A stretch of DNA of 64,000 nt from Escherichia coli. Lineage in GTDB: Bacteria > Pseudomonadota > Gammaproteobacteria > Enterobacterales > Enterobacteriaceae. Of this stretch, positions 4,371 through 37,032 are shown in pieces (positions within the stretch are counted from its first letter, which is position 1; the number at the start of each line of letters is the position of its first letter). The notes below the pieces were generated by a model. The model did no database searches. It was not told the DNA's origin and was given only the letters and a program-made list of their open reading frames with translations. The stretch is from the NCBI RefSeq assembly GCF_041886205.1, contig NZ_CP169029.1. One strand, given 5' to 3'. A program made the position numbers and the translations under genes.

Positions 4371-7259
4371 ATGCCCCGCAGCACCTGGTTCAAAGCATTA
4401 TTGTTGTTTGTTGCCCTTTGGGCACCCTTAAGTCAGGCAGAAACGGGATGGCAGCCGATTCAGGAAACCATCCGTAAAAGTGATAAAGATAACCGCCAGT
4501 ATCAGGCTATACGTCTGGATAACGGTATGGTGGTCTTGCTGGTTTCTGATCCGCAGGCGGTTAAATCGCTCTCGGCGCTGGTGGTGCCCGTTGGGTCGCT
4601 GGAAGATCCCGAGGCGTACCAGGGGCTGGCACATTACCTTGAACATATGAGTCTGATGGGGTCGAAAAAGTACCCGCAGGCTGACAGTCTGGCCGAATAT
4701 CTCAAAATGCACGGCGGCAGTCACAATGCCAGCACGGCACCGTATCGCACGGCTTTCTATCTGGAAGTTGAGAACGACGCCTTGCCCGGTGCGGTAGACC
4801 GCCTGGCGGACGCTATTGCAGAACCCTTGCTCGACAAGAAATACGCCGAACGTGAACGTAATGCAGTGAATGCCGAATTAACCATGGCGCGTACGCGTGA
4901 CGGGATGCGCATGGCGCAGGTCAGCGCAGAAACCATTAACCCGGCACACCCCGGTTCAAAGTTTTCTGGTGGTAACCTCGAAACTTTAAGCGACAAACCT
5001 GGTAATCCGGTGCAGCAGGCGCTGAAAGATTTCCACGAGAAGTACTATTCCGCCAATCTGATGAAGGCGGTTATTTACAGCAATAAACCGCTGCCGGAGT
5101 TGGCAAAAATGGCGGCGGACACCTTTGGTCGCGTGCCGAACAAAGAGAGCAAAAAACCGGAAATCACCGTGCCGGTAGTCACCGACGCGCAAAAGGGCAT
5201 TATCATTCATTACGTCCCGGCGCTGCCGCGTAAAGTGTTGCGCGTAGAGTTTCGTATTGATAACAACTCGGCGAAATTCCGTAGCAAAACCGATGAATTG
5301 ATTACCTATCTGATTGGTAATCGCAGCCCAGGTACACTTTCCGACTGGCTGCAAAAGCAGGGATTAGTTGAGGGCATTAGCGCCAACTCCGATCCTATCG
5401 TCAACGGCAACAGCGGCGTATTAGCGATCTCTGCGTCTTTAACCGATAAAGGTCTGGCGAATCGCGATCAGGTTGTGGCGGCTATTTTTAGCTACCTCAA
5501 TTTGTTACGTGAAAAAGGGATCGATAAACAATACTTCGATGAACTGGCGAATGTGCTGGATATCGACTTCCGTTATCCGTCAATCACCCGTGATATGGAT
5601 TACGTCGAATGGCTGGCAGATACCATGATTCGCGTTCCTGTTGAGCATACGCTGGATGCAGTCAATATTGCCGATCGGTACGATGCTAAAGCAGTAAAGG
5701 AACGTCTGGCGATGATGACGCCGCAGAATGCGCGTATCTGGTATATCAGCCCGAAAGAGCCGCACAACAAAACGGCTTACTTTGTCGATGCGCCGTATCA
5801 GGTCGATAAAATCAGCGCACAAACTTTCGCCGACTGGCAGAAAAAAGCCGCCGACATTGCGCTCTCTTTGCCAGAGCTTAACCCTTATATTCCTGACGAT
5901 TTCTCGCTGATTAAGTCAGACAAGAAATATGACCATCCAGAGCTGATTGTTGATGAGTCGAATCTGCGCGTGGTGTATGCGCCAAGCCGTTATTTTGCCA
6001 GCGAGCCAAAAGCCGATGTCAGCCTGATTTTGCGTAATCCGAAAGCCATGGACAGCGCCCGCAATCAGGTGATGTTTGCGCTCAATGATTATCTCGCAGG
6101 GCTGGCGCTTGATCAGTTAAGCAACCAGGCGTCGGTTGGTGGCATAAGTTTTTCCACCAACGCTAACAACGGCCTTATGGTTAATGCTAATGGTTACACC
6201 CAGCGTCTGCCGCAGCTGTTCCAGGCATTGCTGGAAGGCTACTTTAGCTATACCGCCACGGAAGATCAGCTTGAGCAGGCGAAGTCCTGGTATAACCAGA
6301 TGATGGATTCCGCAGAAAAGGGTAAAGCGTTTGAGCAGGCGATTATGCCCGCGCAGATGCTCTCGCAAGTGCCGTACTTCTCGCGAGATGAACGGCGTAA
6401 AATTTTGCCCTCCATTACGTTGAAAGAGGTGCTGGCCTATCGCGACGCCTTAAAATCAGGGGCTCGACCAGAGTTTATGGTTATCGGCAACATGACCGAG
6501 GCCCAGGCAACAACGCTGGCACGCGATGTGCAAAAACAGTTGGGCGCTGATGGTTCAGAGTGGTGTCGAAACAAAGATGTAGTGGTCGATAAAAAACAAT
6601 CCGTCATCTTTGAAAAAGCCGGTAACAGCACCGACTCCGCACTGGCAGCGGTATTTGTACCGACTGGCTACGATGAATACACCAGCTCAGCCTATAGCTC
6701 TCTGTTGGGGCAGATCGTACAGCCGTGGTTCTACAATCAGTTGCGTACCGAAGAACAATTGGGCTATGCCGTGTTTGCGTTTCCAATGAGCGTGGGGCGT
6801 CAGTGGGGCATGGGCTTCCTTTTGCAAAGCAATGATAAACAGCCTTCATTCTTGTGGGAGCGTTACAAGGCGTTTTTCCCAACCGCAGAGGCAAAATTGC
6901 GAGCGATGAAGCCAGATGAGTTTGCGCAAATCCAGCAGGCGGTAATTACCCAGATGCTGCAGGCACCGCAAACGCTCGGCGAAGAAGCATCGAAGTTAAG
7001 TAAAGATTTCGATCGCGGCAATATGCGCTTCGATTCGCGTGATAAAATCGTGGCCCAGATAAAACTGCTGACGCCGCAAAAACTTGCTGATTTCTTCCAT
7101 CAGGCGGTGGTCGAGCCGCAAGGCATGGCTATTCTGTCGCAGATTTCCGGTAGCCAAAATGGGAAAGCCGAATATGTGCATCCTGAAGGCTGGAAAGTGT
7201 GGGAGAACGTCAGCGCGTTGCAGCAAACAATGCCCCTGATGAGTGAAAAGAATGAGTGA
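4371..7259 (+). CDS. ptrA: protease III (pitrilysin), periplasmic M16 zinc metalloprotease (962 aa)
   Basis: 962 aa with signal peptide MPRSTWFKALLLFVALWAPLSQA and the inverted zinc motif HYLEH in the N-terminal region; located between recC and recB. Confidence 0.95.
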   Translation: MPRSTWFKALLLFVALWAPLSQAETGWQPIQETIRKSDKDNRQYQAIRLDNGMVVLLVSDPQAVKSLSALVVPVGSLEDPEAYQGLAHYLEHMSLMGSKKYPQADSLAEYLKMHGGSHNASTAPYRTAFYLEVENDALPGAVDRLADAIAEPLLDKKYAERERNAVNAELTMARTRDGMRMAQVSAETINPAHPGSKFSGGNLETLSDKPGNPVQQALKDFHEKYYSANLMKAVIYSNKPLPELAKMAADTFGRVPNKESKKPEITVPVVTDAQKGIIIHYVPALPRKVLRVEFRIDNNSAKFRSKTDELITYLIGNRSPGTLSDWLQKQGLVEGISANSDPIVNGNSGVLAISASLTDKGLANRDQVVAAIFSYLNLLREKGIDKQYFDELANVLDIDFRYPSITRDMDYVEWLADTMIRVPVEHTLDAVNIADRYDAKAVKERLAMMTPQNARIWYISPKEPHNKTAYFVDAPYQVDKISAQTFADWQKKAADIALSLPELNPYIPDDFSLIKSDKKYDHPELIVDESNLRVVYAPSRYFASEPKADVSLILRNPKAMDSARNQVMFALNDYLAGLALDQLSNQASVGGISFSTNANNGLMVNANGYTQRLPQLFQALLEGYFSYTATEDQLEQAKSWYNQMMDSAEKGKAFEQAIMPAQMLSQVPYFSRDERRKILPSITLKEVLAYRDALKSGARPEFMVIGNMTEAQATTLARDVQKQLGADGSEWCRNKDVVVDKKQSVIFEKAGNSTDSALAAVFVPTGYDEYTSSAYSSLLGQIVQPWFYNQLRTEEQLGYAVFAFPMSVGRQWGMGFLLQSNDKQPSFLWERYKAFFPTAEAKLRAMKPDEFAQIQQAVITQMLQAPQTLGEEASKLSKDFDRGNMRFDSRDKIVAQIKLLTPQKLADFFHQAVVEPQGMAILSQISGSQNGKAEYVHPEGWKVWENVSALQQTMPLMSEKNE

Positions 7260-10200
7260 TGTCGCCGAGACACTAGATCCTTTGCGCTTGCCCTTACAGG
7301 GCGAGCGCCTGATTGAAGCCTCTGCCGGCACAGGCAAAACCTTTACGATTGCGGCGCTCTATTTGCGCCTGTTACTTGGACTAGGCGGTTCCGCCGCCTT
7401 TCCCCGCCCGCTGACCGTTGAAGAACTGCTGGTGGTCACCTTTACCGAGGCTGCCACGGCAGAATTGCGCGGTCGTATCCGTAGCAATATCCACGAGTTG
7501 CGCATCGCCTGTCTGCGTGAAACCACCGACAATCCACTGTACGAACGCCTGCTGGAAGAGATCGACGATAAAGCGCAAGCCGCGCAGTGGTTGTTGTTAG
7601 CCGAACGGCAGATGGATGAAGCGGCAGTCTTTACTATTCACGGCTTTTGCCAGCGCATGCTCAACCTGAATGCCTTTGAATCCGGCATGCTGTTTGAGCA
7701 GCAGCTGATTGAAGATGAGTCTCTGCTACGCTACCAGGCCTGCGCCGATTTCTGGCGTCGCCACTGCTACCCGCTGCCGCGTGAAATTGCCCAGGTCGTC
7801 TTTGAAACCTGGAAAGGGCCGCAGGCGTTACTGCGCGATATTAATCGTTATCTGCAAGGCGAAGCGCCGGTTATCAAAGCGCCGCCGCCCGATGATGAAA
7901 CGCTGGCTACCCGCCACGCGCAAATTGTGGCGCGTATTGATACGGTAAAACAGCAGTGGCGCGACGCGGTGGGTGAACTGGATGCGCTGATCGAATCTTC
8001 TGGTATTGATCGACGCAAGTTTAACCGTAGCAATCAGGCTAAATGGATCGACAAGATCAGCGCCTGGGCAGAAGAAGAGACCAACAGTTATCAGTTGCCA
8101 GAGTCGCTGGAAAAATTCTCTCAGCGTTTCTTAGAAGATCGCACGAAAGCCGGGGGGGAAACCCCGCGACATCCACTGTTTGAGGCGATCGATCAACTGC
8201 TTGCAGAACCATTGTCGATCCGCGATCTGGTGATCACCCGCGCATTGGCTGAGATCCGCGAAACAGTAGCGCGTGAAAAACGCCGCCGTGGCGAATTGGG
8301 TTTTGATGACATGTTAAGTCGGCTCGATTCCGCGCTGCGTAGCGAAAGCGGCGAGGTGTTGGCAGCGGCGATCCGTACGCGATTCCCGGTGGCAATGATC
8401 GATGAATTTCAGGATACCGACCCCCAGCAGTACCGAATTTTTCGCCGTATCTGGCACCATCAGCCGGAAACCGCATTGTTGCTTATTGGCGACCCGAAGC
8501 AGGCCATATATGCATTCCGGGGTGCGGATATCTTCACTTATATGAAGGCGCGTAGCGAAGTTCACGCCCACTACACTTTAGACATCAACTGGCGTTCCGC
8601 ACCAGGAATGGTGAACAGTGTGAACAAGCTTTTCAGCCAGACTGATGACGCGTTCATGTTTCGCGAAATACCGTTTATTCCAGTGAAATCAGCCGGGAAA
8701 AATCAGGCGTTACGTTTTGTATTTAGAGGTGAAACGCAGCCTGCGATGAAAATGTGGCTGATGGAAGGCGAAAGCTGCGGCGTTGGCGACTATCAAAGTA
8801 CCATGGCGCAGGTATGTGCTGCGCAAATCCGCGACTGGCTACAAGCCGGACAGCGGGGCGAAGCGTTGCTGATGAACGGCGACGAAGCGCGTTCGGTGCG
8901 TGCTTCGGACATCAGCGTGCTGGTGCGCAGCCGCCAGGAGGCCGCTCAGGTGCGCGATGCCTTAACGCTGCTGGAAATCCCTTCCGTTTACCTTTCGAAC
9001 CGCGACAGTGTTTTTGAAACTCTGGAAGCGCAGGAAATGCTTTGGTTGTTGCAGGCGGTGATGACGCCCGAACGTGAGAACACCCTGCGCAGTGCGCTGG
9101 CAACGTCAATGATGGGGCTGAATGCGCTGGATATTGAAACGCTGAACAATGACGAACATGCGTGGGATGCGGTAGTTGAAGAGTTCGATGGTTATCGGCA
9201 AATCTGGCGCAAACGTGGCGTTATGCCGATGCTGCGGGCGCTGATGTCGGCGCGTAACATTGCAGAAAACTTGCTGGCAACGGCAGGCGGTGAGCGGCGT
9301 CTTACCGATATCTTGCATATCAGCGAACTGCTTCAAGAAGCCGGAACGCAGCTGGAAAGTGAACATGCGCTGGTACGCTGGTTATCGCAACATATCCTCG
9401 AGCCAGACAGTAATGCCTCCAGCCAACAAATGCGCCTCGAAAGTGATAAACATCTGGTGCAGATTGTCACGATCCATAAATCGAAAGGGCTGGAATATCC
9501 GCTTGTCTGGTTGCCATTTATTACCAATTTCCGCGTCCAGGATCAGGCGTTTTATCACGATCGCCACTCGTTTGAGGCTGTTCTGGATCTTAACGCTGCG
9601 CCAGAAAGTGTCGATCTCGCGGAGGCCGAACGTCTGGCGGAAGATCTGCGTTTGCTTTACGTGGCGCTGACGCGTTCGGTTTGGCATTGCAGTCTCGGCG
9701 TTGCACCGCTGGTGCGCCGTCGTGGCGATAAAAAAGGTGACACCGACGTCCACCAAAGTGCGCTCGGGCGTTTGCTGCAAAAAGGGGAACCGCAAGATGC
9801 GGCAGGGCTTCGCACCTGTATTGAAGCGTTATGCGATGATGATATTGCCTGGCAAACGGCACAAACTGGTGATAACCAGCCCTGGCAGGTTAATGATGCT
9901 TTAACTGCAGAACTGAATGCGAGGACGCTACAACGATTGCCCGGCGATAACTGGCGTGTCACCAGCTACTCCGGATTGCAGCAGCGTGGTCACGGTATCG
10001 CTCAGGATCTGATGCCACGGCTGGATGTTGATGCCGCAGGCGTGGTCAGCGTCGTTGAAGAACCGACGTTAACACCACATCAGTTTCCGCGCGGTGCGTC
10101 ACCGGGGACGTTCTTGCACAGTTTGTTTGAAGACCTGGATTTTACCCAGCCGGTTGACCCGAACTGGGTGCGGGAAAAACTGGAACTCGGCGGCTTTGAA

Positions 10201-10794
10201 TCGCAGTGGGAACCGGTATTGACCGAGTGGATCACGGCTGTCCTCCAGGCACCTCTCAATGGAACGGGTGTTAGCCTGAGTCAGCTTTCCGACCGCGATA
10301 AACAGGTGGAGATGGAGTTTTACCTGCCGATTAGCGAACCGCTCATCGCCAGCCAGCTTGATGCACTAATTCGCCAGTTTGACCCGCTATCTGCTGGCTG
10401 CCCGCCGCTGGAGTTCATGCAGGTACGTGGCATGTTAAAAGGCTTTATCGACCTGGTGTTCCGCCACGAAGGGCGTTATTACCTGCTCGACTATAAATCC
10501 AACTGGTTGGGTGAAGACAGTTCGGCTTACACCCAACAGGCTATGGCGGCGGCGATGCAGGCACACCGCTATGATTTGCAATATCAGCTTTATACCCTGG
10601 CGCTACACCGTTATCTGCGCCATCGCATTGCTGATTACGACTATGATCGTCACTTTGGCGGCGTTATCTATCTGTTCCTGCGTGGCGTTGATAAAGAACA
10701 TCCGCAACAAGGGATTTACACAACCCGACCCAACGCCGGGTTGATTGCCCTGATGGATGAGATGTTTGCCGGTATGACCCTGGAGGAGGCGTAA
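7252..10794 (+). CDS. recB: exodeoxyribonuclease V beta subunit RecB (helicase-nuclease, 1180 aa)
   Basis: Internal ATG at 7252 gives [31 protein letters not shown] with Walker A GTGKT; overlaps the ptrA stop; length matches RecB. Confidence 0.96.
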
Positions 10795-12620
10795 TGAAAT
10801 TGCAAAAGCAATTACTGGAAGCTGTGGAGCACAAACAGCTACGCCCGCTGGATGTGCAATTTGCCCTGACCGTGGCGGGAGATGAACATCCTGCCGTCAC
10901 CCTCGCGGCGGCACTGTTAAGTCATGATGCCGGAGAGGGACACGTCTGTTTGCCGCTTTCACGACTGGAAAATAACGAGGCGTCGCATCCGCTGTTGGCG
11001 ACCTGTGTCAGTGAAATCGGTGAGCTACAAAATTGGGAAGAATGCTTGCTGGCTTCTCAAGCGGTCAGCAGGGGAGATGAACCCACGCCGATGATCCTCT
11101 GTGGCGATCGTCTTTATTTGAATCGCATGTGGTGTAACGAGCGGACGGTAGCGCGCTTCTTCAATGAGGTGAATCATGCCATTGAGGTTGATGAAGCTCT
11201 ACTGGCGCAAACCCTGGACAAACTTTTTCCAGTAAGCGATGAAATTAACTGGCAAAAAGTTGCAGCGGCAGTGGCGCTGACGCGGCGGATCTCGGTGATT
11301 TCCGGCGGCCCAGGCACCGGTAAAACGACCACCGTGGCGAAGTTGCTGGCAGCGTTAATTCAAATGGCCGACGGCGAACGCTGCCGTATCCGTCTGGCTG
11401 CACCAACGGGTAAAGCTGCCGCGCGCTTAACCGAATCTCTCGGCAAGGCTTTGCGACAGTTACCGCTGACCGATGAACAAAAGAAACGCATTCCGGAAGA
11501 TGCCAGCACTTTGCACCGATTGCTGGGCGCGCAGCCGGGTAGCCAGCGTTTACGTCATCATGCCGGTAACCCGCTGCATCTTGATGTGCTGGTGATAGAT
11601 GAAGCGTCAATGATCGATCTGCCTATGATGTCGAGACTGATCGACGCCTTGCCAGATCATGCGCGAGTGATCTTTCTCGGCGATCGTGATCAACTGGCCT
11701 CGGTTGAGGCTGGGGCTGTGCTGGGCGATATCTGCGCTTATGCCAACGCGGGCTTTACCGCCGAGCGTGCCAGGCAGCTAAGCCGCCTGACGGGGACTCA
11801 CGTTCCGGCAGGAACTGGCACAGAAGCGGCATCTTTGCGCGACAGTCTCTGCCTGCTGCAAAAAAGCTATCGTTTCGGCAGCGATTCTGGCATTGGTCAG
11901 TTAGCTGCGGCGATCAACCGTGGTGATAAAACGACAGTGAAAACCGTTTTTCAGCAGGATTTTACTGATATCGAAAAACGACTTTTACAGAGCGGCGAAG
12001 ATTATATTGCGATGCTTGAGGAAGCTCTTGCGGGTTATGGACGTTATCTGGATCTGCTGCAAGCGCGTGCCGAGCCGGATTTAATCATTCAGGCGTTCAA
12101 TGAGTACCAACTTTTGTGCGCCCTGCGGGAAGGGCCGTTTGGCGTGGCTGGACTGAATGAGCGAATTGAGCAGTTTATGCAACAGAAGCGCAAAATTCAT
12201 CGTAATCCGCACTCTCGTTGGTACGAAGGCCGACCGGTGATGATTGCCCGTAATGACAGCGCGCTTGGGTTGTTTAATGGCGATATCGGTGTCGCTCTGG
12301 ATCGCGGGCAGGGGACGCGCGTCTGGTTTGCGATGCCGGACGGCAATATTAAGTCTGTGCAACCGAGTCGCTTGCCAGAGCACGAAACTACGTGGGCGAT
12401 GACGGTACATAAATCGCAGGGATCGGAGTTCGACCATGCGGCGTTGATTTTGCCGAGCCAACGCACGCCGGTAGTAACGCGAGAGCTGGTTTATACCGCG
12501 GTGACCCGCGCGCGTCGCCGTCTGTCGCTGTATGCCGATGAGCGCATATTAAGTGCGGCAATCGCCACTCGTACTGAGCGGCGCAGTGGTCTGGCGGCGT
12601 TGTTTAGTTCACGGGAATAA
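10794..12620 (+). CDS. recD: exodeoxyribonuclease V alpha subunit RecD (608 aa)
   Basis: 608 aa, Walker [11 protein letters not shown]; start ATG overlaps the recB stop (TAATG) by 1 nt. Confidence 0.96.
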
Positions 12621-14244: not shown

Positions 14245-15498
14245 ATGTCAGGATCCAACACTGCAATCAGCCGTCGTCGTTTACTGCAAGGCGCGGGTGC
14301 CATGTGGCTATTGAGCGTAAGTCAGGTCAGTCTGGCTGCGGTCAGCCAGGTCGTGGCGGTGCGCGTCTGGCCTGCGTCCAGCTACACCCGCGTGACGGTA
14401 GAATCAAATCGTCAGCTGAAATATAAGCAGTTCGCGTTGAGTAACCCGGAACGCGTGGTGGTGGATATCGAAGATGTAAACCTGAACTCGGTACTCAAGG
14501 GGATGGCGGCACAAATTCGTGCAGACGACCCGTTCATCAAGTCGGCGCGCGTCGGGCAATTTGACCCGCAAACCGTACGGATGGTTTTTGAATTAAAGCA
14601 AAACGTAAAACCGCAGCTGTTTGCCCTTGCGCCGGTCGCCGGGTTTAAAGAGCGTCTGGTGATGGACCTCTATCCGGCCAATGCACAGGATATGCAGGAC
14701 CCGCTGCTGGCGCTGCTGGAGGATTACAACAAAGGCGACCTCGAAAAGCAGGTGCCGCCAGCGCAAAGTGGTCCACAACCAGGTAAAGCAGGGCGCGATC
14801 GTCCGATTGTCATTATGCTTGACCCTGGCCACGGTGGCGAAGACTCCGGTGCGGTGGGGAAATACAAAACGCGCGAAAAAGACGTGGTATTGCAAATAGC
14901 TCGCCGTCTGCGCTCTCTGATCGAGAAAGAGGGCAATATGAAGGTGTACATGACGCGCAATGAAGACATCTTCATTCCGTTGCAAGTGCGCGTAGCAAAA
15001 GCCCAGAAACAGCGTGCTGACCTGTTTGTCTCTATCCATGCCGACGCCTTTACCAGTCGTCAGCCGAGCGGTTCCTCTGTGTTTGCGCTCTCAACCAAAG
15101 GTGCAACCAGTACTGCGGCAAAATATCTGGCACAAACCCAGAACGCCTCGGACTTGATTGGTGGCGTGAGCAAAAGCGGTGACCGCTATGTCGACCACAC
15201 CATGTTCGATATGGTGCAGTCGCTGACCATTGCTGACAGCCTTAAGTTTGGTAAAGCGGTACTGAATAAGCTCGGTAAAATCAACAAGCTGCATAAAAAT
15301 CAGGTTGAACAGGCCGGGTTTGCCGTACTAAAGGCACCAGATATTCCCTCCATTCTGGTCGAAACGGCGTTTATCAGTAACGTTGAGGAAGAGCGTAAAC
15401 TGAAAACGGCGACTTTCCAGCAGGAAGTTGCGGAGTCTATTCTTGCGGGAATTAAAGCGTATTTTGCCGATGGGGCGACGCTGGCGAGAAGGGGATGA
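14245..15498 (+). CDS. amiC: N-acetylmuramoyl-L-alanine amidase AmiC (417 aa, Tat signal)
   Basis: Internal ATG at 14245 (RBS gggagagg) gives [24 protein letters not shown]..., a twin-arginine signal; amidase_3 family; divergent from argA as in E. coli. Confidence 0.93.
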
Positions 15499-15507
15499 TG
15501 TTTTTAA

Positions 15508-15540
15508 TTTATTCAATGAATTTATGTTTCATTGAATAAA
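15508..15540. repeat. perfect 13-bp AT-rich inverted repeat (tttattcaatgaa / ttcattgaataaa, 7-nt loop) 10 bp after the amiC stop
   Basis: Read directly from sequence; lies at the left edge of the accessory island. Confidence 0.5.
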
Positions 15541-15689
15541 TATTATTTACATAAATGTTGAACGATGGTTTTGTGACTGCTGTCGAATATTTGAATATCG
15601 GCTTAAAAAATAAGCCTGTCATCTCTTTTATTAAGCACAATTCCGTGTAAGGTATACGCATTAGTTAATTATCTTGTAACTGTTAAATC

Positions 15690-15744
15690 AGGCAAGGCAA
15701 TGTTTGAAGTAATTATTACTTCTGACATGCCTTGCCTTTTTTTT
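15690..15744 (+). terminator. leader stem-loop plus U8 tract upstream of the antiterminator gene; candidate conditional (RAT-associated) terminator
   Basis: Outer stem aggcaaggca (15690-15699) pairs with tgccttgcct (15728-15737); inner palindrome gaagtaat-t-attacttc (15706-15722); followed by 8 T (15737-15744); ends 12 nt before RBS gggag and ATG 15757. Confidence 0.6.
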
Positions 15745-15756
15745 GGGAGCCATGGA

Positions 15757-16581
15757 ATGATCATCGAAAAAGTCATGAACAATAATTGTGTACAGGCATC
15801 GGTGAACGGACAGGAGGTTATCATTTCTGGGCCTGGCGTTGGTTACAATAAAAAATATGGTATGTCGGTCCCTGAGCATCCTGCAAACCGGATTTTTTAT
15901 GTCAGAAATGAGCAAAAAAATAAACTCTACAAATTGATTGAGCATGTGGGTATTGAGTATATTTTTGTTGCCGAAAAGATAGTGCATTATGCGGAGAGTA
16001 ATCTCGAAAAAAAACTCAATCCATCGCTACTACTGATTCTTGCTGATCACATTTCGAATGCAATATCCCGAGTCGTCTCAGGCATACAAATTAATAATGT
16101 TTTCCTTGAGGAAATCAAAGCGTTGTACAAAGCAGAGTATGCAATAAGTCGTGATGCATTAACAATCATTAATGAGCAATTTAGCGTTCAACTACCGGAT
16201 GATGAGATTGGTTTTATAGCATTGCATATTTTAAATAATTATGAAAATTCAGTTGATTATGAATCAGTAAGGATCATTGAGCTGTCTCAAAAAATCACGG
16301 AGCTTATTGAAGTTGTTTATAACAGAAGGGTGGACAGAAGTTCATTTAACTACTCCAGATTTATGATGCACCTTAAATATTTTTCTAGTCGTGTGTTATG
16401 TAATGAAAAAATAAAACAGAAAAATATTGGTGATATCTATGAGCAGTTTCTTGAAAAAGATTTTCAGTTACAACGTGCCATTCATGAAATTGAAAGATAT
16501 CTGTACGCAACTTTTAAATATGATTTGATTCTGGAAGAGAAACTATATCTTTCTATTCGCATCAAAGTATTAATGGACTAA
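15757..16581 (+). CDS. BglG/LicT-family transcriptional antiterminator (CAT RNA-binding domain + PRD domains), ~274 aa
   Basis: N-terminus MIIEKVMNNNCVQASVNGQEVIISGPGVGYNKK is the typical CAT-domain start; ATG 15757 is preferred over the track start 15700 because of RBS gggag and because 15700 lies inside the leader hairpin. Confidence 0.85.
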   Translation: MIIEKVMNNNCVQASVNGQEVIISGPGVGYNKKYGMSVPEHPANRIFYVRNEQKNKLYKLIEHVGIEYIFVAEKIVHYAESNLEKKLNPSLLLILADHISNAISRVVSGIQINNVFLEEIKALYKAEYAISRDALTIINEQFSVQLPDDEIGFIALHILNNYENSVDYESVRIIELSQKITELIEVVYNRRVDRSSFNYSRFMMHLKYFSSRVLCNEKIKQKNIGDIYEQFLEKDFQLQRAIHEIERYLYATFKYDLILEEKLYLSIRIKVLMD

Positions 16582-16612
16582 TTATACATAACATTTTCAT
16601 GAGATAACCAGT

Positions 16613-18193
16613 ATGAAACAAAAGAAAGCCTGGAGTTTTTTTCAGAGCCTGGGGAAGGCATTTATGTATCCCATCGCTCTGTTAAGTGTATGTGGTATGA
16701 TGTTAGGGCTGGGAAGTGGTTTAGCCAGCGATGATATGGGAAAATTCATTCCAGTGTTGGCTATTCCGTTAATTAAAACCATACTTGATTTTATTGTTAG
16801 CCTTGGTTTGTTTGCCTTCGTTAATTTACCTGTATTGTTTGCGATAGCTATACCTTTGGGATTATTAAAAGAGAAAGATGATAAAGCCTATGGCGCTTTT
16901 TCTGGCTTAATTGGCTTTATGGCGATGCATCTTGGAACGAACTTTTATCTTAAACAGCACGACTTATTGGTAGCTGCTGACCAAATGTCGACACATGGGC
17001 AAACCATCATACTCGGGATCCAGTCCTACAATACCAGCGTGTTGGGTGGGATTGTGGCAGGGTTATTAGTCGCCAGCATGTATAAAAAGATCGTTAACTT
17101 ACGTATTCCTGAATCATTAGGGTTTTATAGTGGCCCACGCCTTGTGCCTATCATTACACTGATTGTGATGAGTGGATTTGGTCTGTTCATTCCTTTTATC
17201 TGGCCGCCATTTTTCAATCTTTTCATGCTCATTGGTCACTGGATTTCAACTTCCGGTCCTGTTGGTTATTTCTTCTATGCTGTTGCCGAACGCGTGACGA
17301 TACCTTTTGGCTTAAATCACTTGGTGACATCAGTTTTCCGCTTTACCCCAATCGGCGGATCGGCAGTGATTGGCGGTGAAGAGTATTACGGCACCCTGAA
17401 CATGTTTATGGCATACGTCAAAGAGAATGCGGTCATTCCGCTGGATTTGGCGGGGAAAATGGAGCAGGGCAAACTGATGATTCAGTATGGTCTGGCTGGA
17501 GCCGCGCTGGCGATGTATCGCACTGCTCATGCTCAAAACAGAAGGGCTATCAAAGCATTGCTGATTTCCGGTGTGCTCACGGTAATTATTGGCGGCGTCA
17601 GCGAGCCGATTGAATTTCTGTTCTTATTTGTCAGCCCGCTGTTGTTTGTCTTCCATGCCTTTATGAATGGATTGGCTAACATGGTTCTGCCATATATGGG
17701 CGTGAAGATGGGCTTTACTGGCGATCTGATTCAATTTATTAGCTTTGGTGTCTTACGTGGCACAAGAACGGGATGGCCATTAGCGGTATGTGTTGAAGTG
17801 GCTTATTTCTTCATTTATTACTTTGTGTTCCGTTGGACCATTCTCAAATTTAACCTGATGACTGTAGGCCGTGAAGAGTCCAGTCCTGTCACGCTGAACG
17901 CTCACGAAGAAACTGCAATAGCTAACATCCCAGTTCATGATAAATCAGAGTTGCAGGCAGCGGAGCAAATGGTTAAGGCTCTGGGTGGTAAAGAAAATAT
18001 TAAATCACTGGATAATTGTGTAACTCGTTTGCGTTTAACTATCGCGGATATGGGATTGATAGATGAGGCTGCAATAAAAAGGGCCGGAGGAATTGCGGTT
18101 GTGAAACTTGATCAAAATACCTTACAAGTCATTATCGGTACAAAAGTCATCGCCCTACGTCGGGATATGGATAATTACATGGGGATATGTTGA
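16613..18193 (+). CDS. PTS system glucose-family EIICB component (MalX/PtsG-like), 526 aa, no EIIA domain
   Basis: Multi-span membrane domain followed by C-terminal EIIB with the cysteine motif NCVTRLRLTIADMG; N-terminus MKQKKAWSFFQSLGKAFMYPIALL resembles PtsG/MalX. Confidence 0.9.
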   Translation: MKQKKAWSFFQSLGKAFMYPIALLSVCGMMLGLGSGLASDDMGKFIPVLAIPLIKTILDFIVSLGLFAFVNLPVLFAIAIPLGLLKEKDDKAYGAFSGLIGFMAMHLGTNFYLKQHDLLVAADQMSTHGQTIILGIQSYNTSVLGGIVAGLLVASMYKKIVNLRIPESLGFYSGPRLVPIITLIVMSGFGLFIPFIWPPFFNLFMLIGHWISTSGPVGYFFYAVAERVTIPFGLNHLVTSVFRFTPIGGSAVIGGEEYYGTLNMFMAYVKENAVIPLDLAGKMEQGKLMIQYGLAGAALAMYRTAHAQNRRAIKALLISGVLTVIIGGVSEPIEFLFLFVSPLLFVFHAFMNGLANMVLPYMGVKMGFTGDLIQFISFGVLRGTRTGWPLAVCVEVAYFFIYYFVFRWTILKFNLMTVGREESSPVTLNAHEETAIANIPVHDKSELQAAEQMVKALGGKENIKSLDNCVTRLRLTIADMGLIDEAAIKRAGGIAVVKLDQNTLQVIIGTKVIALRRDMDNYMGIC

Positions 18194-19401
18194 TGGATAT
18201 TTTTAATACCTCAATTTCTCGTAAAGGAACATATTGCACACAATGGGACTTTTGTGAAGACAGATTTGGTGTAAAAGATGTATTACCATTCTCTATTTCA
18301 GATATGGATCTTCCGATACCGGAAGCTATCATCAGAACATTAAAAAAACGTCTGGAACACCCGATTTTAGGGTACAGTCGTTGGCAGCATGATGACTATC
18401 TGAATTCGATAGTCAATTGGTATCATCAACAATATAAAACAGAGATTCAACCAGAATGGATCACCTATAGCCCAAGCGTGATGTATTCAATATCTAAGGC
18501 AATAGAAATATTGACATTGAATGGAGATAATATTCTCATTTTCACGCCTGTTTATAACGCATTTTTTGATGTGATTAAGCATAATGGTCGAAACATGCTA
18601 ACAACCTCTTTGATGAAAGAAAATGGGAGAGGCTACGTTATCAACTGGCAAGACTTTGAGCTTAAAATTAAAAGCGCGAAGATGGTGTTATTATGTAATC
18701 CTCATAACCCGACAGGAACGGTCTGGTCGGAAGACGATCTTCACAGAATCGCAGCATGCTGTGCAAGGCATAATATTTGGTTATGTTCAGATGAAATACA
18801 TAGTGATTTTGTTTTTAATCATAGTTTCACGTCAGCGCTAACAATAAAAGATGACAAAGTGGTGGTGTTTAATTCGATTTCGAAAACATTTAATGTTCCT
18901 GCGCTAACCGGATCATATATGATTTCAACTGACGATAATTTTAATCATAAGTTCAGAACGATATCGAGGTATCGCGATTTCGTAAACTCCCCATCAGTAC
19001 TGAATGTAATTGCGACCATTGTTGCCTATAATGAATGTGAAGAATGGTTAAAGTCGTTAAAGGTACATATTGCCTCTAACATTCAATTTACTTTGCAGTA
19101 TTTAAATGAAAATATTCCGGAATTGATCGTATGGCCAGCTGAGGGCTGCTATTTTTCGTGGGTTGATTGCTCGGCCCTTGGTTATCCCTTTGATAAATTT
19201 TACCGTCGATTAATTAACGAAGGGAGAGTAGGTATTATGGCGGGGCATGTTTATGGTACTGAAGGAGAGGGCTATCTGCGTCTTAATCTGGCCTGCAGTC
19301 GAGAAAAATTATATATGGGGCTTGCGCGCCTTGCGAGTGTAATTAAAAATATTAATCAGGAAAAAGAAAATGAACAATACGGATCTTATCCATCTTATTA
19401 A
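18187..19401 (+). CDS. PLP-dependent aminotransferase class I/II fold protein, MalY/PatB-like cystathionine beta-lyase (C-S lyase), 404 aa
   Basis: N-terminal RKGTYCTQWDF...FGVKDVLPFSISDMDLP and the SISKTFN lysine motif are typical of MalY/PatB; start overlaps the PTS stop. Confidence 0.85.
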   Translation: MLMDIFNTSISRKGTYCTQWDFCEDRFGVKDVLPFSISDMDLPIPEAIIRTLKKRLEHPILGYSRWQHDDYLNSIVNWYHQQYKTEIQPEWITYSPSVMYSISKAIEILTLNGDNILIFTPVYNAFFDVIKHNGRNMLTTSLMKENGRGYVINWQDFELKIKSAKMVLLCNPHNPTGTVWSEDDLHRIAACCARHNIWLCSDEIHSDFVFNHSFTSALTIKDDKVVVFNSISKTFNVPALTGSYMISTDDNFNHKFRTISRYRDFVNSPSVLNVIATIVAYNECEEWLKSLKVHIASNIQFTLQYLNENIPELIVWPAEGCYFSWVDCSALGYPFDKFYRRLINEGRVGIMAGHVYGTEGEGYLRLNLACSREKLYMGLARLASVIKNINQEKENEQYGSYPSY

Positions 19402-19966
19402 ACGTTTTATGCGTAACGAACATAAAGCAGTAGAAGAGGTTATTGATTCCCCCCTTTCGGAAGTCGCGAATTTAATTAAAATATTACAATCTTGCCAGGG
19501 AAAAGTTGTTTTTATTGGTGTTGGGAAATCTGGCATTATTGCCAGAAAACTTGCTGCAACATTTGCCAGCACCGGAACTCCCTCGTTTTTTGTTCACGGT
19601 ACGGAAGCGGTACACGGCGACCTTGGGATGGTGGCGAAAGACGATGTTGTTATTCTTATTTCAAACAGTGGTGAGACGGCGGAAATCCTGGCGACACTGC
19701 CTAGTTTGAAAAAAATGGGTAATTATTTGATCTCTTTTACCCGCAGTCATCACTCATCGCTTGCGATAAGTTGTGATTTATCTGTTGAAATCCCCGTCAA
19801 AAGTGAGGCGGATAATTTAGGTTTAGCACCGTCATGCTCGTCTACTGTTGTTCTGGTTGTTGGTGATGCGGTGGCGCTTGCACTCTCTGAATTGAAAAAA
19901 TTTACTCGTGCTGATTTCGGCTTATATCATCCAGGAGGTGCACTCGGCATTAAAGCAAATTCATAA
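19370..19966 (+). CDS. single SIS-domain sugar-phosphate isomerase, KpsF/GutQ-like but lacking CBS domains (198 aa)
   Basis: VVFIGVGKSGIIARKLAATFASTGTPSFFVHGTEAVHGDLGMV...ILISNSGET matches the arabinose-5-phosphate isomerase SIS domain; overlaps the preceding gene by about 30 nt. Confidence 0.8.
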   Translation: MNNTDLIHLIKRFMRNEHKAVEEVIDSPLSEVANLIKILQSCQGKVVFIGVGKSGIIARKLAATFASTGTPSFFVHGTEAVHGDLGMVAKDDVVILISNSGETAEILATLPSLKKMGNYLISFTRSHHSSLAISCDLSVEIPVKSEADNLGLAPSCSSTVVLVVGDAVALALSELKKFTRADFGLYHPGGALGIKANS

Positions 19967-20037
19967 TTTCAAAGTATAAATACAGTAACCGGTCACGCCA
20001 TCTTTTGGGGTGGCGTTCATTGAAGTGAGTGTCAGCT

Positions 20038-20985
20038 ATGAAAAATGTTCTGGTCACCGTCCCCAACTTTTCAGCACGCTGTGTTTCCGCCAGCAAGTTG
20101 CTAAGAGAGAATAATTTTAATCTTATTATTAAGAATAATGTGGAGCATCTGCTTAAATCAGAATCCACTGCATTACGAGAATCTATTTGCGCGGTCATCG
20201 CCGGAAAAGATTGTTATCAGGCGGACACGCTATCATTGCTGCCTGGTGTGAAAATAATATCAAGATTCGGGACGGGGATAGATAATATTGATCTTCGTGC
20301 AGCACAACAATCCGGTATTGTAGTCAATAATGCGGTTGGGATTAATTCAAATGCTGTCGCGGAATTTATCATTGGACTTATCTTCGCGAGCATGAGAAAT
20401 ATTCCAGGCAGCTATCATGCGATGCAAAATGGCTACTGGGGTGAGTCGCATGGCTATGAATTACAAGGCAAACGGATTGGCATGGTTGGCTACGGCAATA
20501 TAGGTAAAACCCTGGCAAAAAGGTTATCCGGTTTTGATGTTGAGCTTTTAGCTTATGACAAACAACCCGATTATCAGGTTGCTGACAAAGTTGGAGTTCA
20601 GTTTGTATCAATTGAAGATATCTTTATGCAGTCGCATGTCATCATTGTTCTTTTGCCTTTTTCTCCTGAGCTGGAGAACTTCATTAGTCATAAATATTTG
20701 TCGATGATGCGCAATGGTGCTCTAATCATCAATGCCGCAAGGGGAAAGTTGCTGGATGAGGGCGCTTTACTACAGGTGATTGAAGAACGAAATGTGTTTG
20801 CGGCGCTGGATGTGTTTAGCTCTGAACCGTTGGCGCAATTTAGCCCACTGCTACATGCCAAAAATATCATTACAACGCCGCATATTGCGGCCGCCACCGT
20901 TGAGTCATACCAGCAAACCGGTACACACGTTGCCCAGTCGATAATTGATTACTTCGCAGGAAGGGAGATAAAAAACGTGTTGTGA
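20038..20985 (+). CDS. D-isomer-specific 2-hydroxyacid dehydrogenase family NAD-binding protein (~315 aa)
   Basis: Rossmann motif GKRIGMVGYGNIGKTLAKRL and the family pattern ...LLPFSPELENFIS...; ATG 20038 preferred over the GTG at 20029 (uncertain). Confidence 0.8.
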   Translation: MKNVLVTVPNFSARCVSASKLLRENNFNLIIKNNVEHLLKSESTALRESICAVIAGKDCYQADTLSLLPGVKIISRFGTGIDNIDLRAAQQSGIVVNNAVGINSNAVAEFIIGLIFASMRNIPGSYHAMQNGYWGESHGYELQGKRIGMVGYGNIGKTLAKRLSGFDVELLAYDKQPDYQVADKVGVQFVSIEDIFMQSHVIIVLLPFSPELENFISHKYLSMMRNGALIINAARGKLLDEGALLQVIEERNVFAALDVFSSEPLAQFSPLLHAKNIITTPHIAAATVESYQQTGTHVAQSIIDYFAGREIKNVL

Positions 20986-21011
20986 GTTCAGCGAACGAAG
21001 TTTTTAAATAC

Positions 21012-21047
21012 AAAAAAACCGCAATTTGTGGAACACATTGCGGTTTA
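21012..21047 (-). terminator. rho-independent terminator of the tRNA-fMet operon (8-bp GC-containing stem followed by U7 on the minus strand)
   Basis: Stem accgcaat (21018-21025) pairs with attgcggt (21037-21044); the plus-strand A7 at 21012-21018 reads as U7 after the hairpin on the minus strand; 17 bp from the metV 3' end. Confidence 0.7.
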
Positions 21048-21063
21048 TCAGCATTCTAAGTAT

Positions 21064-21140
<77 letters not shown>

Positions 21141-21172
21141 TCACCGTACTGCTTTATTTCATCAAATTTGAT

Positions 21173-21249
<77 letters not shown>

Positions 21250-21282
21250 TCACCGTACTGCTTTACTTCATCAAATTTTAAT

Positions 21283-21359
<77 letters not shown>

Positions 21360-22665: not shown

Positions 22666-22741
22666 TGTGATATTCTGTATACCGTTTTGACGGATACGAT
22701 AGGGTGAGGGATAACCTCGCCCTTTTTAATTCTGAGGTGCT

Positions 22742-33000: not shown

Positions 33001-33082
33001 CAGGATTCCTCATCTCGCTTTATTGGCGCTCTGCTAAGGCGGAGAAAGGAAACCACCGAAGCAGTAGTATTGGTCATTATTT

Positions 33083-33098
33083 GCTAACTCGAGTTAGC
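33083..33098. promoter_or_regulatory. perfect 16-bp palindrome GCTAACTCGAGTTAGC (copy 1), candidate LacI-family operator, about 83 bp upstream of the fucI start
   Basis: Read directly from sequence; the central CG and the 16-bp twofold symmetry are typical of LacI/GalR-family operators. Confidence 0.55.
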
Positions 33099-33321
33099 TT
33101 AGGTTTGTAGGCTTTTTATGCACAACTTTTTTGTTGTTGAAATGTGAGGGGCTTCACGAGAAGTGGTTAAAATACGATCTCTGTCAAATTATTATTTAGC
33201 GGGAGAAAAATAAATTTTACGTATAATCATATGGTTATTAGATTTTAATGGTTATGCATCACAGTTTTAACTCAAATGATTTGGCTAATTTGTATACCTA
33301 AAATAGCTTTAAAAGGCGATC

Positions 33322-33337
33322 GCTAACTCGAGTTAGC
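33322..33337. promoter_or_regulatory. perfect 16-bp palindrome GCTAACTCGAGTTAGC (copy 2), candidate operator about 133 bp upstream of the ABC transporter ATG
   Basis: Identical to copy 1, 239 bp away; a consensus TATAAT hexamer lies at 33222-33227 on the plus strand between the two copies. Confidence 0.55.
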
Positions 33338-33469
33338 AAAATGCGAAGAATAGATTGATGCGATGAATATTTATTCAAAGGTTATTCGTATCACAGTGGA
33401 GATGGCTTTAGTAGCGACGTTTATGCCGTACTTCACATTTTCAGTTTCTGATTATTGAGGAAAGCTGCA

Positions 33470-34969: not shown

Positions 34970-34972
34970 ATT

Positions 34973-35956
34973 ATGACTATCTCTGTAACCTCTCCAGACA
35001 GTAATAATAAGAAAATAAAGATAAATAAAGAACTTTTGATGCGTCTTGCGCCTCTTTTTAGCTTAATTATATTAGTGCTGTTTTTTAGTTTCAGCTCTCC
35101 CTTTTTCTTTAATACCGAAAATATCATGACGATTGCTCTGCAAACGTCGGTTATCGGCATTATGGCCATTGGGGTAACTTTCGTCATTATTACCGCGGGC
35201 ATCGATCTTTCATTGGGCTCCGTGGTGGCTTTTTCTGGTGTCGCCGTGGGGATTTGCGCCACACTGGGCCTGCCGCTGCCAGTGTGTATTATTGCCGGTG
35301 TTTTAGCCGGTGGAATGTGCGGCTATGTGAATGGTTTGTTGGTCACTAAAATGACCATTCCACCATTTATCGCTACCTTGGGCCTGATGATGTCCGTCAG
35401 AGGTATCAATATGGTGATGACCGACGGGCGCGCCATCTATTTTGCCGATTACCCGATGTTCAAAACGCTCGCTCAGGGACGCTTATTTGATGTGCTGCCT
35501 TATCCTGTTTTCTACCTTGTCATTGTAGCGCTTGTCGGCGCTTACATCCTGAAGAAAACCGTCATTGGTCGCTATGTCTATGCCGTAGGCAGTAATGAAG
35601 TTGCTGCTCATCTTTCTGGTATTAAAGTTCAGCGCGTGAAAATTTTCGTCTATGCCTTCTGTGGATTATTAACGGGGATTGCAGGTGTCATTCTGGCATC
35701 TCGTCTCAACTCCGGACAACCGACGGTAGGTGTGGGTTATGAACTGGAAGCTATTGCCGCGGTAGTGATTGGCGGAACCAGCTTAATGGGCGGTATTGGC
35801 ACTATTGGCGGCACAATCATTGGCGCTTTCATTATGAGTGTACTGAAAAATGGCCTCAATTTAATGGGCGTCTCCCAGTTCTGGCAAATGGTCGCGATGG
35901 GCGTCGTTGTGGTCGCTGCCGTTTACCTCGATACATTACGCAAAAAGATTCGTTGA
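34973..35956 (+). CDS. sugar ABC transporter permease (RbsC/AraH-like, 327 aa)
   Basis: Polytopic membrane protein; ATG 4 nt after the ATPase stop with RBS gagga. Confidence 0.88.
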   Translation: MTISVTSPDSNNKKIKINKELLMRLAPLFSLIILVLFFSFSSPFFFNTENIMTIALQTSVIGIMAIGVTFVIITAGIDLSLGSVVAFSGVAVGICATLGLPLPVCIIAGVLAGGMCGYVNGLLVTKMTIPPFIATLGLMMSVRGINMVMTDGRAIYFADYPMFKTLAQGRLFDVLPYPVFYLVIVALVGAYILKKTVIGRYVYAVGSNEVAAHLSGIKVQRVKIFVYAFCGLLTGIAGVILASRLNSGQPTVGVGYELEAIAAVVIGGTSLMGGIGTIGGTIIGAFIMSVLKNGLNLMGVSQFWQMVAMGVVVVAAVYLDTLRKKIR

Positions 35957-36029
35957 CTTAGGCTCCCTGTTTTATCGGGAAACAACTGCCCTGACGTTAA
36001 GGGTGATTCACTCAGAACGGAGTACAACA

Positions 36030-36980: not shown

Positions 36981-37032
36981 AAAATTGGGGATGAATTTTC
37001 ATCCCCGTTATCTCCAGCGTCAGGGAGGCTTT

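Follow-up and report, generated by a model that had tools for sequence, protein, structure and literature searches.

The window, a 64,000-nucleotide stretch of an Escherichia coli genome, carries an AT-rich accessory block of 5.6 kb, the paf cassette (15499-21063, plus strand), between amiC and a tRNA array. The block fills the place of the 73-bp spacer that lies between amiC and metV in K-12, and it holds five intact genes of one orientation. Its left edge lies directly after the stop codon of amiC (14245-15498, plus strand), the left core flank. RefSeq annotates this gene in strain wlxctx60, which is 100% identical; identity to K-12 is ~99% up to 15499. On the right, the block adjoins the 3' end of the first of three tRNA-fMet(CAU) genes, metV, metW and metZ (21064-21359), which occupy 21064-21140, 21173-21249 and 21283-21359, all on the minus strand. 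Identity to K-12 is lost at 15499 and regained at 21062. The GC content of the block is 0.398 versus 0.512 for the remaining window, where 189 other 5.5-kb segments have a mean of 0.509 (sd 0.019, minimum 0.468); the drop far exceeds chance. GC at third codon positions is 0.33-0.45 in the genes of the block and 0.56-0.60 in those of the flanks. The genes are closely packed: 31 bp separate pafR from pafP, a 1-nt overlap joins the PTS gene to the lyase gene, and the lyase gene runs 32 nt into the SIS gene. The earlier note, made from the sequence alone, had stated that amiC adjoins metV in K-12 and had delimited a low-GC block of five co-oriented, tightly spaced or overlapping genes here; all of this is borne out.

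Just 3' of the amiC stop codon lies a perfect 14-nt inverted repeat, ATTTATTCAATGAA N7 TTCATTGAATAAAT (15507-15541, no strand assigned). Other Escherichia alleles have it in somewhat altered form; the leaders of Citrobacter and Atlantibacter lack it. The repeat may stand in for the amiC terminator or serve as a palindrome for protein binding. Between the last gene of the block and metV there is a hairpin terminator, AAAAAAACCGCAAT...ATTGCGGTTT (21012-21047, no strand assigned). This hairpin, distinct from the ancestral metV terminator, shares homology with that end of the metV type VI secretion (T6SS) island which lies nearest the tRNA.

The five genes

The first gene, pafR (15757-16581, plus strand), encodes a BglG/LicT-family antiterminator comprised of a CAT_RBD domain (residues 1-55) and two PRD domains (73-160 and 178-266), the second being a weak match (E 0.016). 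PafR matches the LicT model at 2e-68, under the equivalog cutoff. His98, His157 and His205 are conserved, and position 268 is Arg. This replacement of LicT's fourth conserved histidine is found throughout the enterobacterial clade, so HPr may act on PafR otherwise than on LicT. The second gene, pafP (16613-18193, plus strand), encodes a glucose-family, MalX-like PTS EIICB permease (PTS_EIIC 14-353, PTS_EIIB 452-484) without an EIIA domain, which scores 538 bits against the TIGR02004 malX model, under its cutoff of 632.

The product of the third gene (18193-19401, plus strand) is a PLP-dependent C-S (beta) lyase of the PatB/MalY family (TIGR04350, 369 bits, over the cutoff of 340); no other gene of the cassette is as divergent. 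The fourth (19370-19966, plus strand) encodes a KpsF-like sugar-phosphate isomerase of 198 residues, an arabinose-5-phosphate isomerase of the c3406 type, which has a SIS domain and no CBS domains. The fifth (20038-20985, plus strand) encodes a D-isomer-specific, phosphoglycerate-dehydrogenase-like 2-hydroxyacid dehydrogenase, called 'phosphoglycerate dehydrogenase' in RefSeq. It is missing from the Firmicute versions of the cassette and from that of homologue L045.

The SIS protein matches the KdsD, KpsF and GutQ models over their SIS part only, and had been read as a truncated KpsF, a sign of decay. That reading fails, for the protein is full length: it matches a solved 198-residue phosphosugar isomerase (PDB 5uqi/5vhu) from end to end (E 6e-122), its length is 196-199 residues from E. 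coli to Clostridioides difficile (the L044 copy was called at 186), and dN/dS of its gene is 0.04-0.08. Mosberg et al. in 2011 reportedly published arabinose-5-phosphate to ribulose-5-phosphate activity for the CFT073 protein, which may not necessarily be its physiological reaction. Over all five genes dN/dS is 0.04-0.21, and the five reading frames are intact in every genome compared; judged by these sequences, all five are under purifying selection. The cargo is intact and constrained, and only the mobility apparatus is missing.

Leader RNA and a model for its control

Sequence conservation among E. coli, Citrobacter and Atlantibacter begins with a leader block upstream of the antiterminator site (15620-15668, plus strand). 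The operon promoter presumably lies within it, where TTAAGC-N16-TATACG at ~15631-15658 is a weak candidate; a consensus promoter scan gave no match at this place and found no convincing sigma-70 promoter. The block is followed by a hairpin resembling a ribonucleic antiterminator (RAT), TTGTAACTGTTAAATCAGGCAA (15672-15697, plus strand), where the antiterminator protein presumably binds. The match is unique in the window and was found in none of 100 shuffles. The bulged hairpin folds likewise in all homologues, and in L044 and L045 its stem has undergone a compensatory change from CUG/CAG to CUA/UAG. The 3' arm of the RAT overlaps the 5' arm of an intrinsic terminator (15690-15745, plus strand), a hairpin at 15690-15737 with a U8 tract. 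The terminator has a minimum free energy of -32.2 kcal/mol (z = -4.7; none of 200 shuffles was equally stable), and compensatory changes occur at 8 of its 18 stem pairs in nine homologues. Every Firmicute version of the cassette has RAT-terminator units. In the window there is one only, upstream of pafR, and none between pafR and pafP. The conserved RAT hairpin overlapping a terminator 5' of pafR argues for antitermination control of the Bgl type. The open reading frame listed at 15700-16581 runs through the terminator, and pafR truly starts at 15757.

The steps of the model follow the BglG/LicT paradigm; the domains and the RNA elements are the part observed here. Transcription of the operon would begin in the AT-rich leader and would halt at the terminator unless PafR occupied the overlapping RAT. 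The EIIB domain of PafP would phosphorylate the PRD histidines of PafR and so set its activity. During transport of the substrate the phosphate of PafP would pass to the sugar, and PafR, now dephosphorylated, would antiterminate. Because the sole RAT lies upstream of pafR, this gene and the other four would be induced jointly. Having no EIIA domain, PafP presumably shares the general EIIA-Glc (Crr) with PtsG and MalX. The imported sugar phosphate would then be handled by the lyase, the isomerase and the dehydrogenase, with products that would enter the pentose-phosphate pathway.

Identity and origin of the block

The block is very probably the paf operon (c3405-c3410 of the uropathogenic strain CFT073), known as the carbohydrate-PTS module of the genomic island at metV, inserted as a low-GC cassette under antitermination control and present here without the T6SS module that uropathogenic strains have beside it. 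Baum 2014 and Mosberg 2011 are the key papers. In CFT073 the operon likewise adjoins amiC on the metV side, with the five genes in matching order and orientation behind a leader with a RAT and a terminator, and the CFT073-like strain clone D i2 has the same position and gene order at ~92% nucleotide identity. Relative to the CFT073/B2 allele, the leader, pafR, pafP and the lyase gene are 87-93% identical in nucleotides, the SIS and dehydrogenase genes ~96-97%. The lyase has 402 residues and its gene overlaps the SIS gene in the window, versus 391 residues without overlap in B2. In B2 strains a T6SS module of ~27 kb, flanked by a 39-bp repeat that contains the tRNA 3' end, separates the cassette from metV, whereas the window has no such module; the B2 metV island is composite, the T6SS island having entered separately between cassette and metV. 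The block is not new: it has been described as the PTS module of PAI-CFT073-metV (c3405-c3410, pafR/pafP), and Bryant et al. located c3405-c3410, a maltose/glucose-type PTS, within that island (PMC2831201). Another study reports that infection of the mouse urinary tract requires pafR and pafP of the metV island and that the mutants are attenuated (PMC8882828). The earlier note had not recognised the block as this published operon.

Among 5426 complete E. coli genomes the cassette is found in 1689 (~31%) and the K-12-type junction in 3734. The cassette thus persists in E. coli as a presence/absence polymorphism; it is accessory, as had been proposed, being absent from K-12 and most strains. The cassette also occupies amiC-metV in Atlantibacter (A. 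hermannii) and E. whittamii, and in two Citrobacter genomes the cassette stands beside tRNA-Asp instead. Its GC content is ~0.40 in hosts of 0.52-0.58, lower than the flanks in every host examined. The four-gene core (antiterminator, EIICB, lyase, SIS) also occurs in C. difficile and Terrisporobacter, and the nearest non-enterobacterial homologues of the lyase are from Firmicutes, with ~50% identity and this same gene order. At the empty site K-12, Salmonella and Cronobacter share the metV terminator CACCCGTNAGGGTG, which indicates that the site was originally empty and received the cassette later. By this comparison of sequences the cassette was apparently inserted exactly at the metV 3' end, displacing the ancestral spacer and the metV terminator.

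The element that mobilised the cassette is now gone. The block contains no integrase or transposase ORF, a search at the block for att-like direct repeats found none, and there is no copy of the tRNA 3' end beyond the three tRNAs with up to three mismatches allowed, in agreement with the earlier description of a tRNA hotspot devoid of these features. The amiC side has neither the expected attR, a partial tRNA copy, nor the ancestral spacer, and the mode of insertion can therefore not be reconstructed.

It is improbable that the Escherichia/Atlantibacter lineage had the five genes at amiC-metV from the outset and that the 69% of E. coli without them, K-12 included, arose by deletion. The matching position in A. 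hermannii and E. whittamii agrees with this history, and relative to Atlantibacter the divergence of the cassette (67-77% nucleotide identity) roughly scales with that of the flanks (71-82%), so that the cassette could alternatively have resided there since ancient times. However, the spacer and terminator of K-12 have their homologues at the empty site of Salmonella and Cronobacter; the empty state therefore predates the cassette, and a simple deletion cannot recreate it. The low GC content in all hosts examined and the tRNA-Asp site in Citrobacter also speak against ancestral residence. Within E. coli, loss by recombination with the empty allele surely happens as well, and gain and loss are compatible. 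Still harder to credit, and largely refuted, is the view of the block as a non-functional leftover of a larger island in decay, with gene relics and a truncated KpsF. The missing mobility genes, the lack of the CBS domains of KdsD, GutQ and KpsF, and the lyase-SIS fusion ORFs of 550-592 residues in some strains would fit such a remnant, but the intact and constrained reading frames, the conserved length of the SIS protein and its crystal structure, the compensatory changes in the leader and the attenuation of mutants reported in PMC8882828 do not. Of the earlier phrase 'old, decayed insertion', the age is upheld by the ancestral empty site, the deep divergence of the alleles and the Citrobacter copy at tRNA-Asp; the decay is contradicted by the intact genes and their dN/dS.

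A recent gain by this strain or lineage, brought about by homologous exchange between its amiC and metV/mltA flanks and DNA of another Escherichia lineage rather than by site-specific integration, is a possibility we regard as doubtful, though less so than the other two. It agrees with the absence of an integrase and of att repeats, and with the mosaic of synonymous divergence: between the window and B2, dS is 0.34-0.52 in the first three genes (pafR, pafP, lyase), a depth equal to that between E. coli and E. whittamii, and 0.09-0.13 in the SIS and dehydrogenase genes, near the 0.06-0.09 of the flanking core genes. The mosaic indicates recombination inside the cassette. Against a recent event, the flanks are ~99% identical to K-12 and divergence does not climb towards either junction; since no imported tract is visible, the recombination would have to be old or its tract to end very near the junctions. 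Such recombination would bear only on how the cassette travelled within E. coli and does not conflict with its original insertion at metV.

Comparison with known systems

The paf operon shares with E. coli bgl (BglG/BglF) and Bacillus subtilis LicT an antiterminator of CAT_RBD and two PRD domains, a RAT hairpin overlapping an intrinsic terminator, and a neighbouring PTS permease that presumably acts as the sensor. It differs in its glucose/MalX-family permease without EIIA, in the single RAT-terminator upstream of the regulator with none between regulator and permease, in the Arg at the fourth PRD histidine, and in its downstream enzymes, a C-S lyase, a SIS isomerase and a dehydrogenase instead of a phospho-beta-glucosidase. 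As in E. coli malX-malY, a glucose-family EIICB permease is directly followed by a PatB/MalY-family PLP C-S lyase. However, both paf proteins score below the MalX equivalog and subfamily cutoffs, an antiterminator takes the place of the MalI repressor, and paf has SIS and dehydrogenase genes besides.

The C. difficile genes CD630_30270-30310 (antiterminator, malX, malY, phosphosugar isomerase, EIIA), which are co-regulated in vivo (PMC4026244), hold the four-gene core in the paf order, with a lyase ~50% identical. Unlike paf, they include an EIIA-Glc gene of their own and no dehydrogenase, and their antiterminator and PTS genes are separated by four RAT-terminator units in tandem. The paf SIS protein is homologous to the catalytic domain of KdsD, GutQ and KpsF (E 3e-58 to KdsD), but it stops at residue 198 without the tandem CBS domains. 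Its 191.8 bits are below the KpsF-family cutoff of 203.7, and it belongs to the CBS-less c3406 type, represented by structure 5uqi.

Borders, composition and identity of the block

The block at 15499-21063 is located between amiC and the metZWV array of tRNA-fMet(CAU) genes. To its left the window runs through recD (+ strand), argA (- strand) and amiC (14245-15498, + strand); to its right the three tRNA-fMet genes (21064-21140, 21173-21249 and 21283-21359, all on the - strand) are followed by mltA and tcdA. The spacing of metV and amiC in K-12 MG1655 is only 73 bp. Identity with K-12 (~99%) stops at 15499, one base past the amiC TGA, and restarts at the tRNA 3' end (21062). Nothing of the 73-bp K-12 spacer is left in the window, and the block is therefore a replacement rather than a simple insertion into the spacer. 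Its GC content is 0.398 vs 0.512 in the remaining window, where the other 5.5-kb windows (n = 189) have a mean of 0.509, a standard deviation of 0.019 and a minimum of 0.468. GC3 is 0.33-0.45 in the genes of the block vs 0.56-0.60 in recD, argA, amiC, mltA and tcdA. At the 3' end of a tRNA gene, the block combines an atypical composition with presence in some genomes and absence from others.

No integrase or transposase reading frame was found within 15499-21063. A search for the tRNA 3' end with up to three mismatches returned only the three tRNAs themselves, with no copy at the distal border, and a search for direct or inverted repeats spanning the block gave the same three tRNAs and short matches at chance level. 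The density of mismatches to K-12 shows no rise towards either junction; this flat profile neither shows nor excludes import of the block together with its flanks. The earlier note had described an AT-rich accessory block at this position, of lower GC than its flanks and free of integrase, transposase and tRNA-end repeats. All of this holds, the border search for att-like repeats that it proposed having now been run, and its interpretation was essentially right for a locus that is already described.

The same five genes, identical in kind and order, are found beside amiC in the CFT073-like B2 strain clone D i2 at ~92% nucleotide identity. With the cassette as the query, clone D i2 and 1421 other genomes give 100% coverage at ~92% identity. 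Genes c3405-c3410 form the colinear set 'PTS system, maltose/glucose specific' within PAI-CFT073-metV, and are kept in uropathogenic strains, E2348/69 and SMS-3-5 (Bryant et al., PMC2831201); metV is a recognised integration hotspot (PMC7545054). By its sequence the cassette is the paf, or c3405-c3410, module, the link to the CFT073 locus tags being that of PMC2831201. The locus, its accessory status, the link to urinary-tract fitness and the isomerase, unusual in its lack of CBS domains, are all already published, and as a discovery the cassette matters little.

Other features were seen in the region. A perfect 14-nt inverted repeat, present in the Escherichia versions only, occupies 15507-15541, directly after the amiC stop at the left edge of the block. 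About 144 bp of K-12 (2945884-2946028, in the mltA-tcdA interval), probably a repetitive extragenic element, are missing from the window at about 22700-22718. Within the fucI-fucA interval a 6.8-kb cassette (33013-39829) stands in place of K-12 fucP and the fucA-fucP intergenic region (1.9 kb). Its products are an RbsA-like ABC ATPase, a permease, a sugar-binding protein, an FGGY pentulose kinase and a LacI/FruR-type regulator, and 383 of the 5426 complete E. coli genomes carry it.

Ancestral state of the locus and composition of PAI-metV

The presence/absence survey proposed in the earlier note was carried out on 5426 complete E. coli genomes. The cassette is carried by 1689 of them, 261 having at least 99% identity to the allele of the window and 1422 having 90-95%. 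The K-12-type amiC-spacer-metV junction occurs in 3734, and together with the carriers these account for almost every genome.

The empty site could be read as the loss, in K-12, of an ancestral core segment. In Salmonella enterica and Cronobacter dublinensis a short spacer separates amiC from metV, and the metV terminator, AAAAAAACACCCGTNAGGGTGTTCA, is the same as that of K-12. Because this terminator is common to the three at the empty site, loss in K-12 was rejected; the empty state is the ancestral one, and the cassette was gained by insertion. Kluyvera and Klebsiella variicola (comparison loci L039 and L040) have cobalamin/propanediol-type (cob/pdu) genes after amiC in place of metV and mltA. 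With no tRNA-fMet gene inside 4 kb, the locus is rearranged in these genera and is uninformative for the ancestral state.

In cassette-bearing genomes a different terminator, AAAAAAACCGCAAT...ATTGCGGTTT...ATTCTAA, adjoins metV. This terminator shares homology with the tRNA-proximal end of the type VI secretion (T6SS) island, which suggests that the right junction of the cassette derives from an element terminus of the T6SS-island kind. The amiC side has neither the old spacer nor the distal tRNA-end repeat that would be expected there.

A T6SS is located downstream of metV in E. coli W and CFT073 (PMC3032704). The 'dehydrogenase - tRNA-end repeat - T6SS' junction of B2 strains is present in 1087 of the 5426 genomes, and the T6SS side is matched without the cassette in about 253. 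Strain LD91-1 is an example of the latter: its amiC is followed by the K-12 spacer, TTGGTTGCGGGGGCC and the T6SS, in this order. These junction counts define four states of the locus: neither element (~3480), T6SS only (~250), cassette only (~600, the window included) and both (~1090). In B2 strains a 39-bp direct repeat, GCGGTTTGTCAGCATTCTAATAAATTGGTTGCGGGGGCC, flanks the T6SS island and includes 15 nt of the tRNA-fMet 3' end. The repeats are found at 25488-25580 of L002 and 6925-6965 of L004 (both loci of clone D i2), and at 4937-5025 of L035 and 2918-2960 of L037 (both of LD91-1, in which the shared repeat is the tRNA-end part). Since the T6SS is bracketed by tRNA-end repeats with or without the cassette, it was inserted independently at metV. 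The PTS cassette and the T6SS island are therefore separate insertions, and PAI-metV is composite.

Genes of the cassette and their control

The cassette is comprised of five genes, all on the + strand. The first, pafR (15757-16581), encodes a BglG/LicT-family antiterminator with a CAT_RBD domain (residues 1-55), a PRD (73-160) and a second, weakly matched PRD (178-266, E 0.016). A mechanically called reading frame at 15700-16581 crosses the terminator described below; pafR itself starts, as annotated in RefSeq, with the ATG at 15757. Alignment of PafR to the LicT PRD structures 1tlv and 1h99 shows that three of the four LicT regulatory histidines are kept (His98, His157 and His205). The fourth position is Arg268 in the enterobacterial clade only, and His in the homologues from Firmicutes and from comparison locus L045. 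The second gene, pafP (16613-18193), encodes a glucose-family, MalX-like EIICB by family profiles, without an EIIA domain. PafP differs from E. coli MalX itself in scoring below the equivalog and subfamily cutoffs (522 vs 665 bits for NF007509, 538 vs 632 bits for TIGR02004). It is followed by a PatB/MalY-family C-S lyase (18193-19401), which clears the broader PatB-family cutoff (369 vs 340 bits), by a SIS-only protein of 198 aa (19370-19966), and by a member of the D-2-hydroxyacid / phosphoglycerate-dehydrogenase family (20038-20985), assigned by its family profile.

The SIS protein is homologous to the SIS half of KdsD, GutQ and KpsF. Proteins of that family consist of a SIS domain and tandem CBS domains, whereas the cassette protein has no CBS domain and covers positions 36-201 of the 328 of the KdsD profile; it stops at residue 198, and the next gene begins 72 bp downstream. 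End to end it corresponds to a solved 198-aa 'phosphosugar isomerase', PDB 5uqi/5vhu (E 6e-122). Its length is 198 aa in the enterobacterial homologues (comparison loci L005-L009) and 196-199 aa in L042 (Clostridioides difficile), L043 and L045; in L044 it is called at 186 aa. Mosberg et al. are said to have found in 2011 that c3406 is an active isomerase without CBS domains. Some strains of E. coli and Shigella flexneri with the window-type allele have lyase-SIS fusion proteins of 550-592 aa (P0122-P0127), which would arise via a frameshift in the 32-nt overlap of the two genes.

All five genes have dN/dS ratios of 0.04-0.21, and the SIS gene one of 0.04-0.08, which indicates that the cargo is functional and not decayed. 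The description of the SIS gene as a truncated KpsF-like gene was therefore misleading, given its full-length structural match, conserved length and low dN/dS, and the reported activity of c3406. Of the suggested 'old, decayed insertion', the insertion stands, the empty site being ancestral, and the decay does not. Between the window and the B2 allele, dS is 0.34-0.52 for pafR, pafP and the lyase gene (15757-19401), as deep as for core genes of E. coli and E. whittamii (0.33-0.40). For the SIS and dehydrogenase genes (19370-20985) it is 0.09-0.13, close to the values of argA, amiC and mltA in the core flanks (0.06-0.09). This unequal divergence implies that the cassette is a mosaic of deep haplotypes with recombination within it.

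A sequence resembling a ribonucleic antiterminator (RAT), TTGTAACTGTTAAATCAGGCAA, is located at 15674-15695. It is the only one in the window, 0 of 100 shuffles contained a match, and it folds into a bulged hairpin (15672-15697, -6.3 kcal/mol). With its 3' arm it overlaps the 5' arm of a strong terminator, a hairpin at 15690-15737 (-32 kcal/mol, z = -4.7) with eight U residues behind it, which ends 11 nt ahead of the pafR start codon. Among nine homologous leaders, compensatory changes are found at 8 of the 18 pairs of the terminator stem, and covariation (CUG/CAG to CUA/UAG) is seen in the inner RAT stem. The Firmicute versions have canonical RATs, GGATTGTAACTG...CAGGCAAAACC. Rfam recognised the three tRNAs only and gave no match to the RAT leader. 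The promoter may lie in a conserved block at 15620-15668, which holds a weak candidate; a consensus scan gave fewer matches than shuffled sequence and none at a sensible position in the leader.

The single RAT is upstream of pafR, and the gap between pafR and pafP is only 31 bp. The five genes would form an operon of the Bgl type, autoregulated and induced by its substrate, with PafP as the sensor and Crr as the presumed EIIA. Baum et al. reportedly found in 2014 that PafR can act as an antiterminator.

Relatives of the cassette and its possible function

Beyond the window, one genome per species was scanned with exact 8-residue peptides, so that the taxonomic list is a lower bound. The cassette was found in at least five places: another genome labelled E. 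coli, E. whittamii, Atlantibacter hermannii and two Citrobacter genomes. In E. whittamii it occupies the same site as in the window, and in A. hermannii the amiC-metV-mltA site, with 66-85% protein identity. In Citrobacter the five genes and the RAT-terminator leader abut the 3' end of tRNA-Asp(GTC) (6476-11923 of locus L006, 6476-11924 of L009). The neighbouring reading frames have the sizes of K-12 dnaQ (245 aa) and rnhA (155 aa), with one of fadE size (814 aa) upstream; by these sizes and the K-12 gene order, the site is presumably the aspV locus. The GC content of the cassette is 0.39-0.41 in Escherichia and Citrobacter and 0.465 in Atlantibacter, that of the flanks 0.47-0.58. The next-closest homologues of the lyase are from Firmicutes, at ~50% identity, and the order antiterminator, EIICB, lyase, SIS (~197 aa) is kept in C. 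difficile, Terrisporobacter and two contigs, L044 (of uncertain taxon) and L045. L045 has the cassette without the dehydrogenase, and one source names its lyase 'uncultured Enterobacter sp.'. The low GC and the Firmicute relatives would fit a Firmicute-like origin.

The substrate is not deducible from the gene content of the cassette. We consider it rather unlikely that the four-gene core common to E. coli, Citrobacter, Atlantibacter, C. difficile and Terrisporobacter is an undescribed route for the catabolism of sugar-amino-acid conjugates. In such a route the conjugate could be host- or diet-derived, for example an S- or O-glycosylated cysteine or serine or a related thio-sugar, and its product could feed, as arabinose-5-P or ribulose-5-P, into the pentose-phosphate pathway. 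Both a MurQ-like etherase logic and a glycosyl-cysteine substrate are speculation. If the route were true, finding the conjugate would also explain the pairing of malX and malY in E. coli. Possibly useful to workers on the locus are the composite nature of PAI-metV, the ancestral empty site, the tRNA-Asp site in Citrobacter, and the four-gene core and RAT-terminator control common with C. difficile.

The operon of C. difficile, CD630_30270-30310, is co-regulated in vivo (PMC4026244). It has the same four-gene core as the cassette and, in addition, an EIIA gene of its own. Between its antiterminator and PTS genes the RAT-plus-terminator unit is present four times in tandem, one copy every ~104 bp (4999-5400 of L042), which is an unusual multiplication of the control element. 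In Terrisporobacter the same core is accompanied by an EIIA gene and then by transketolase genes.
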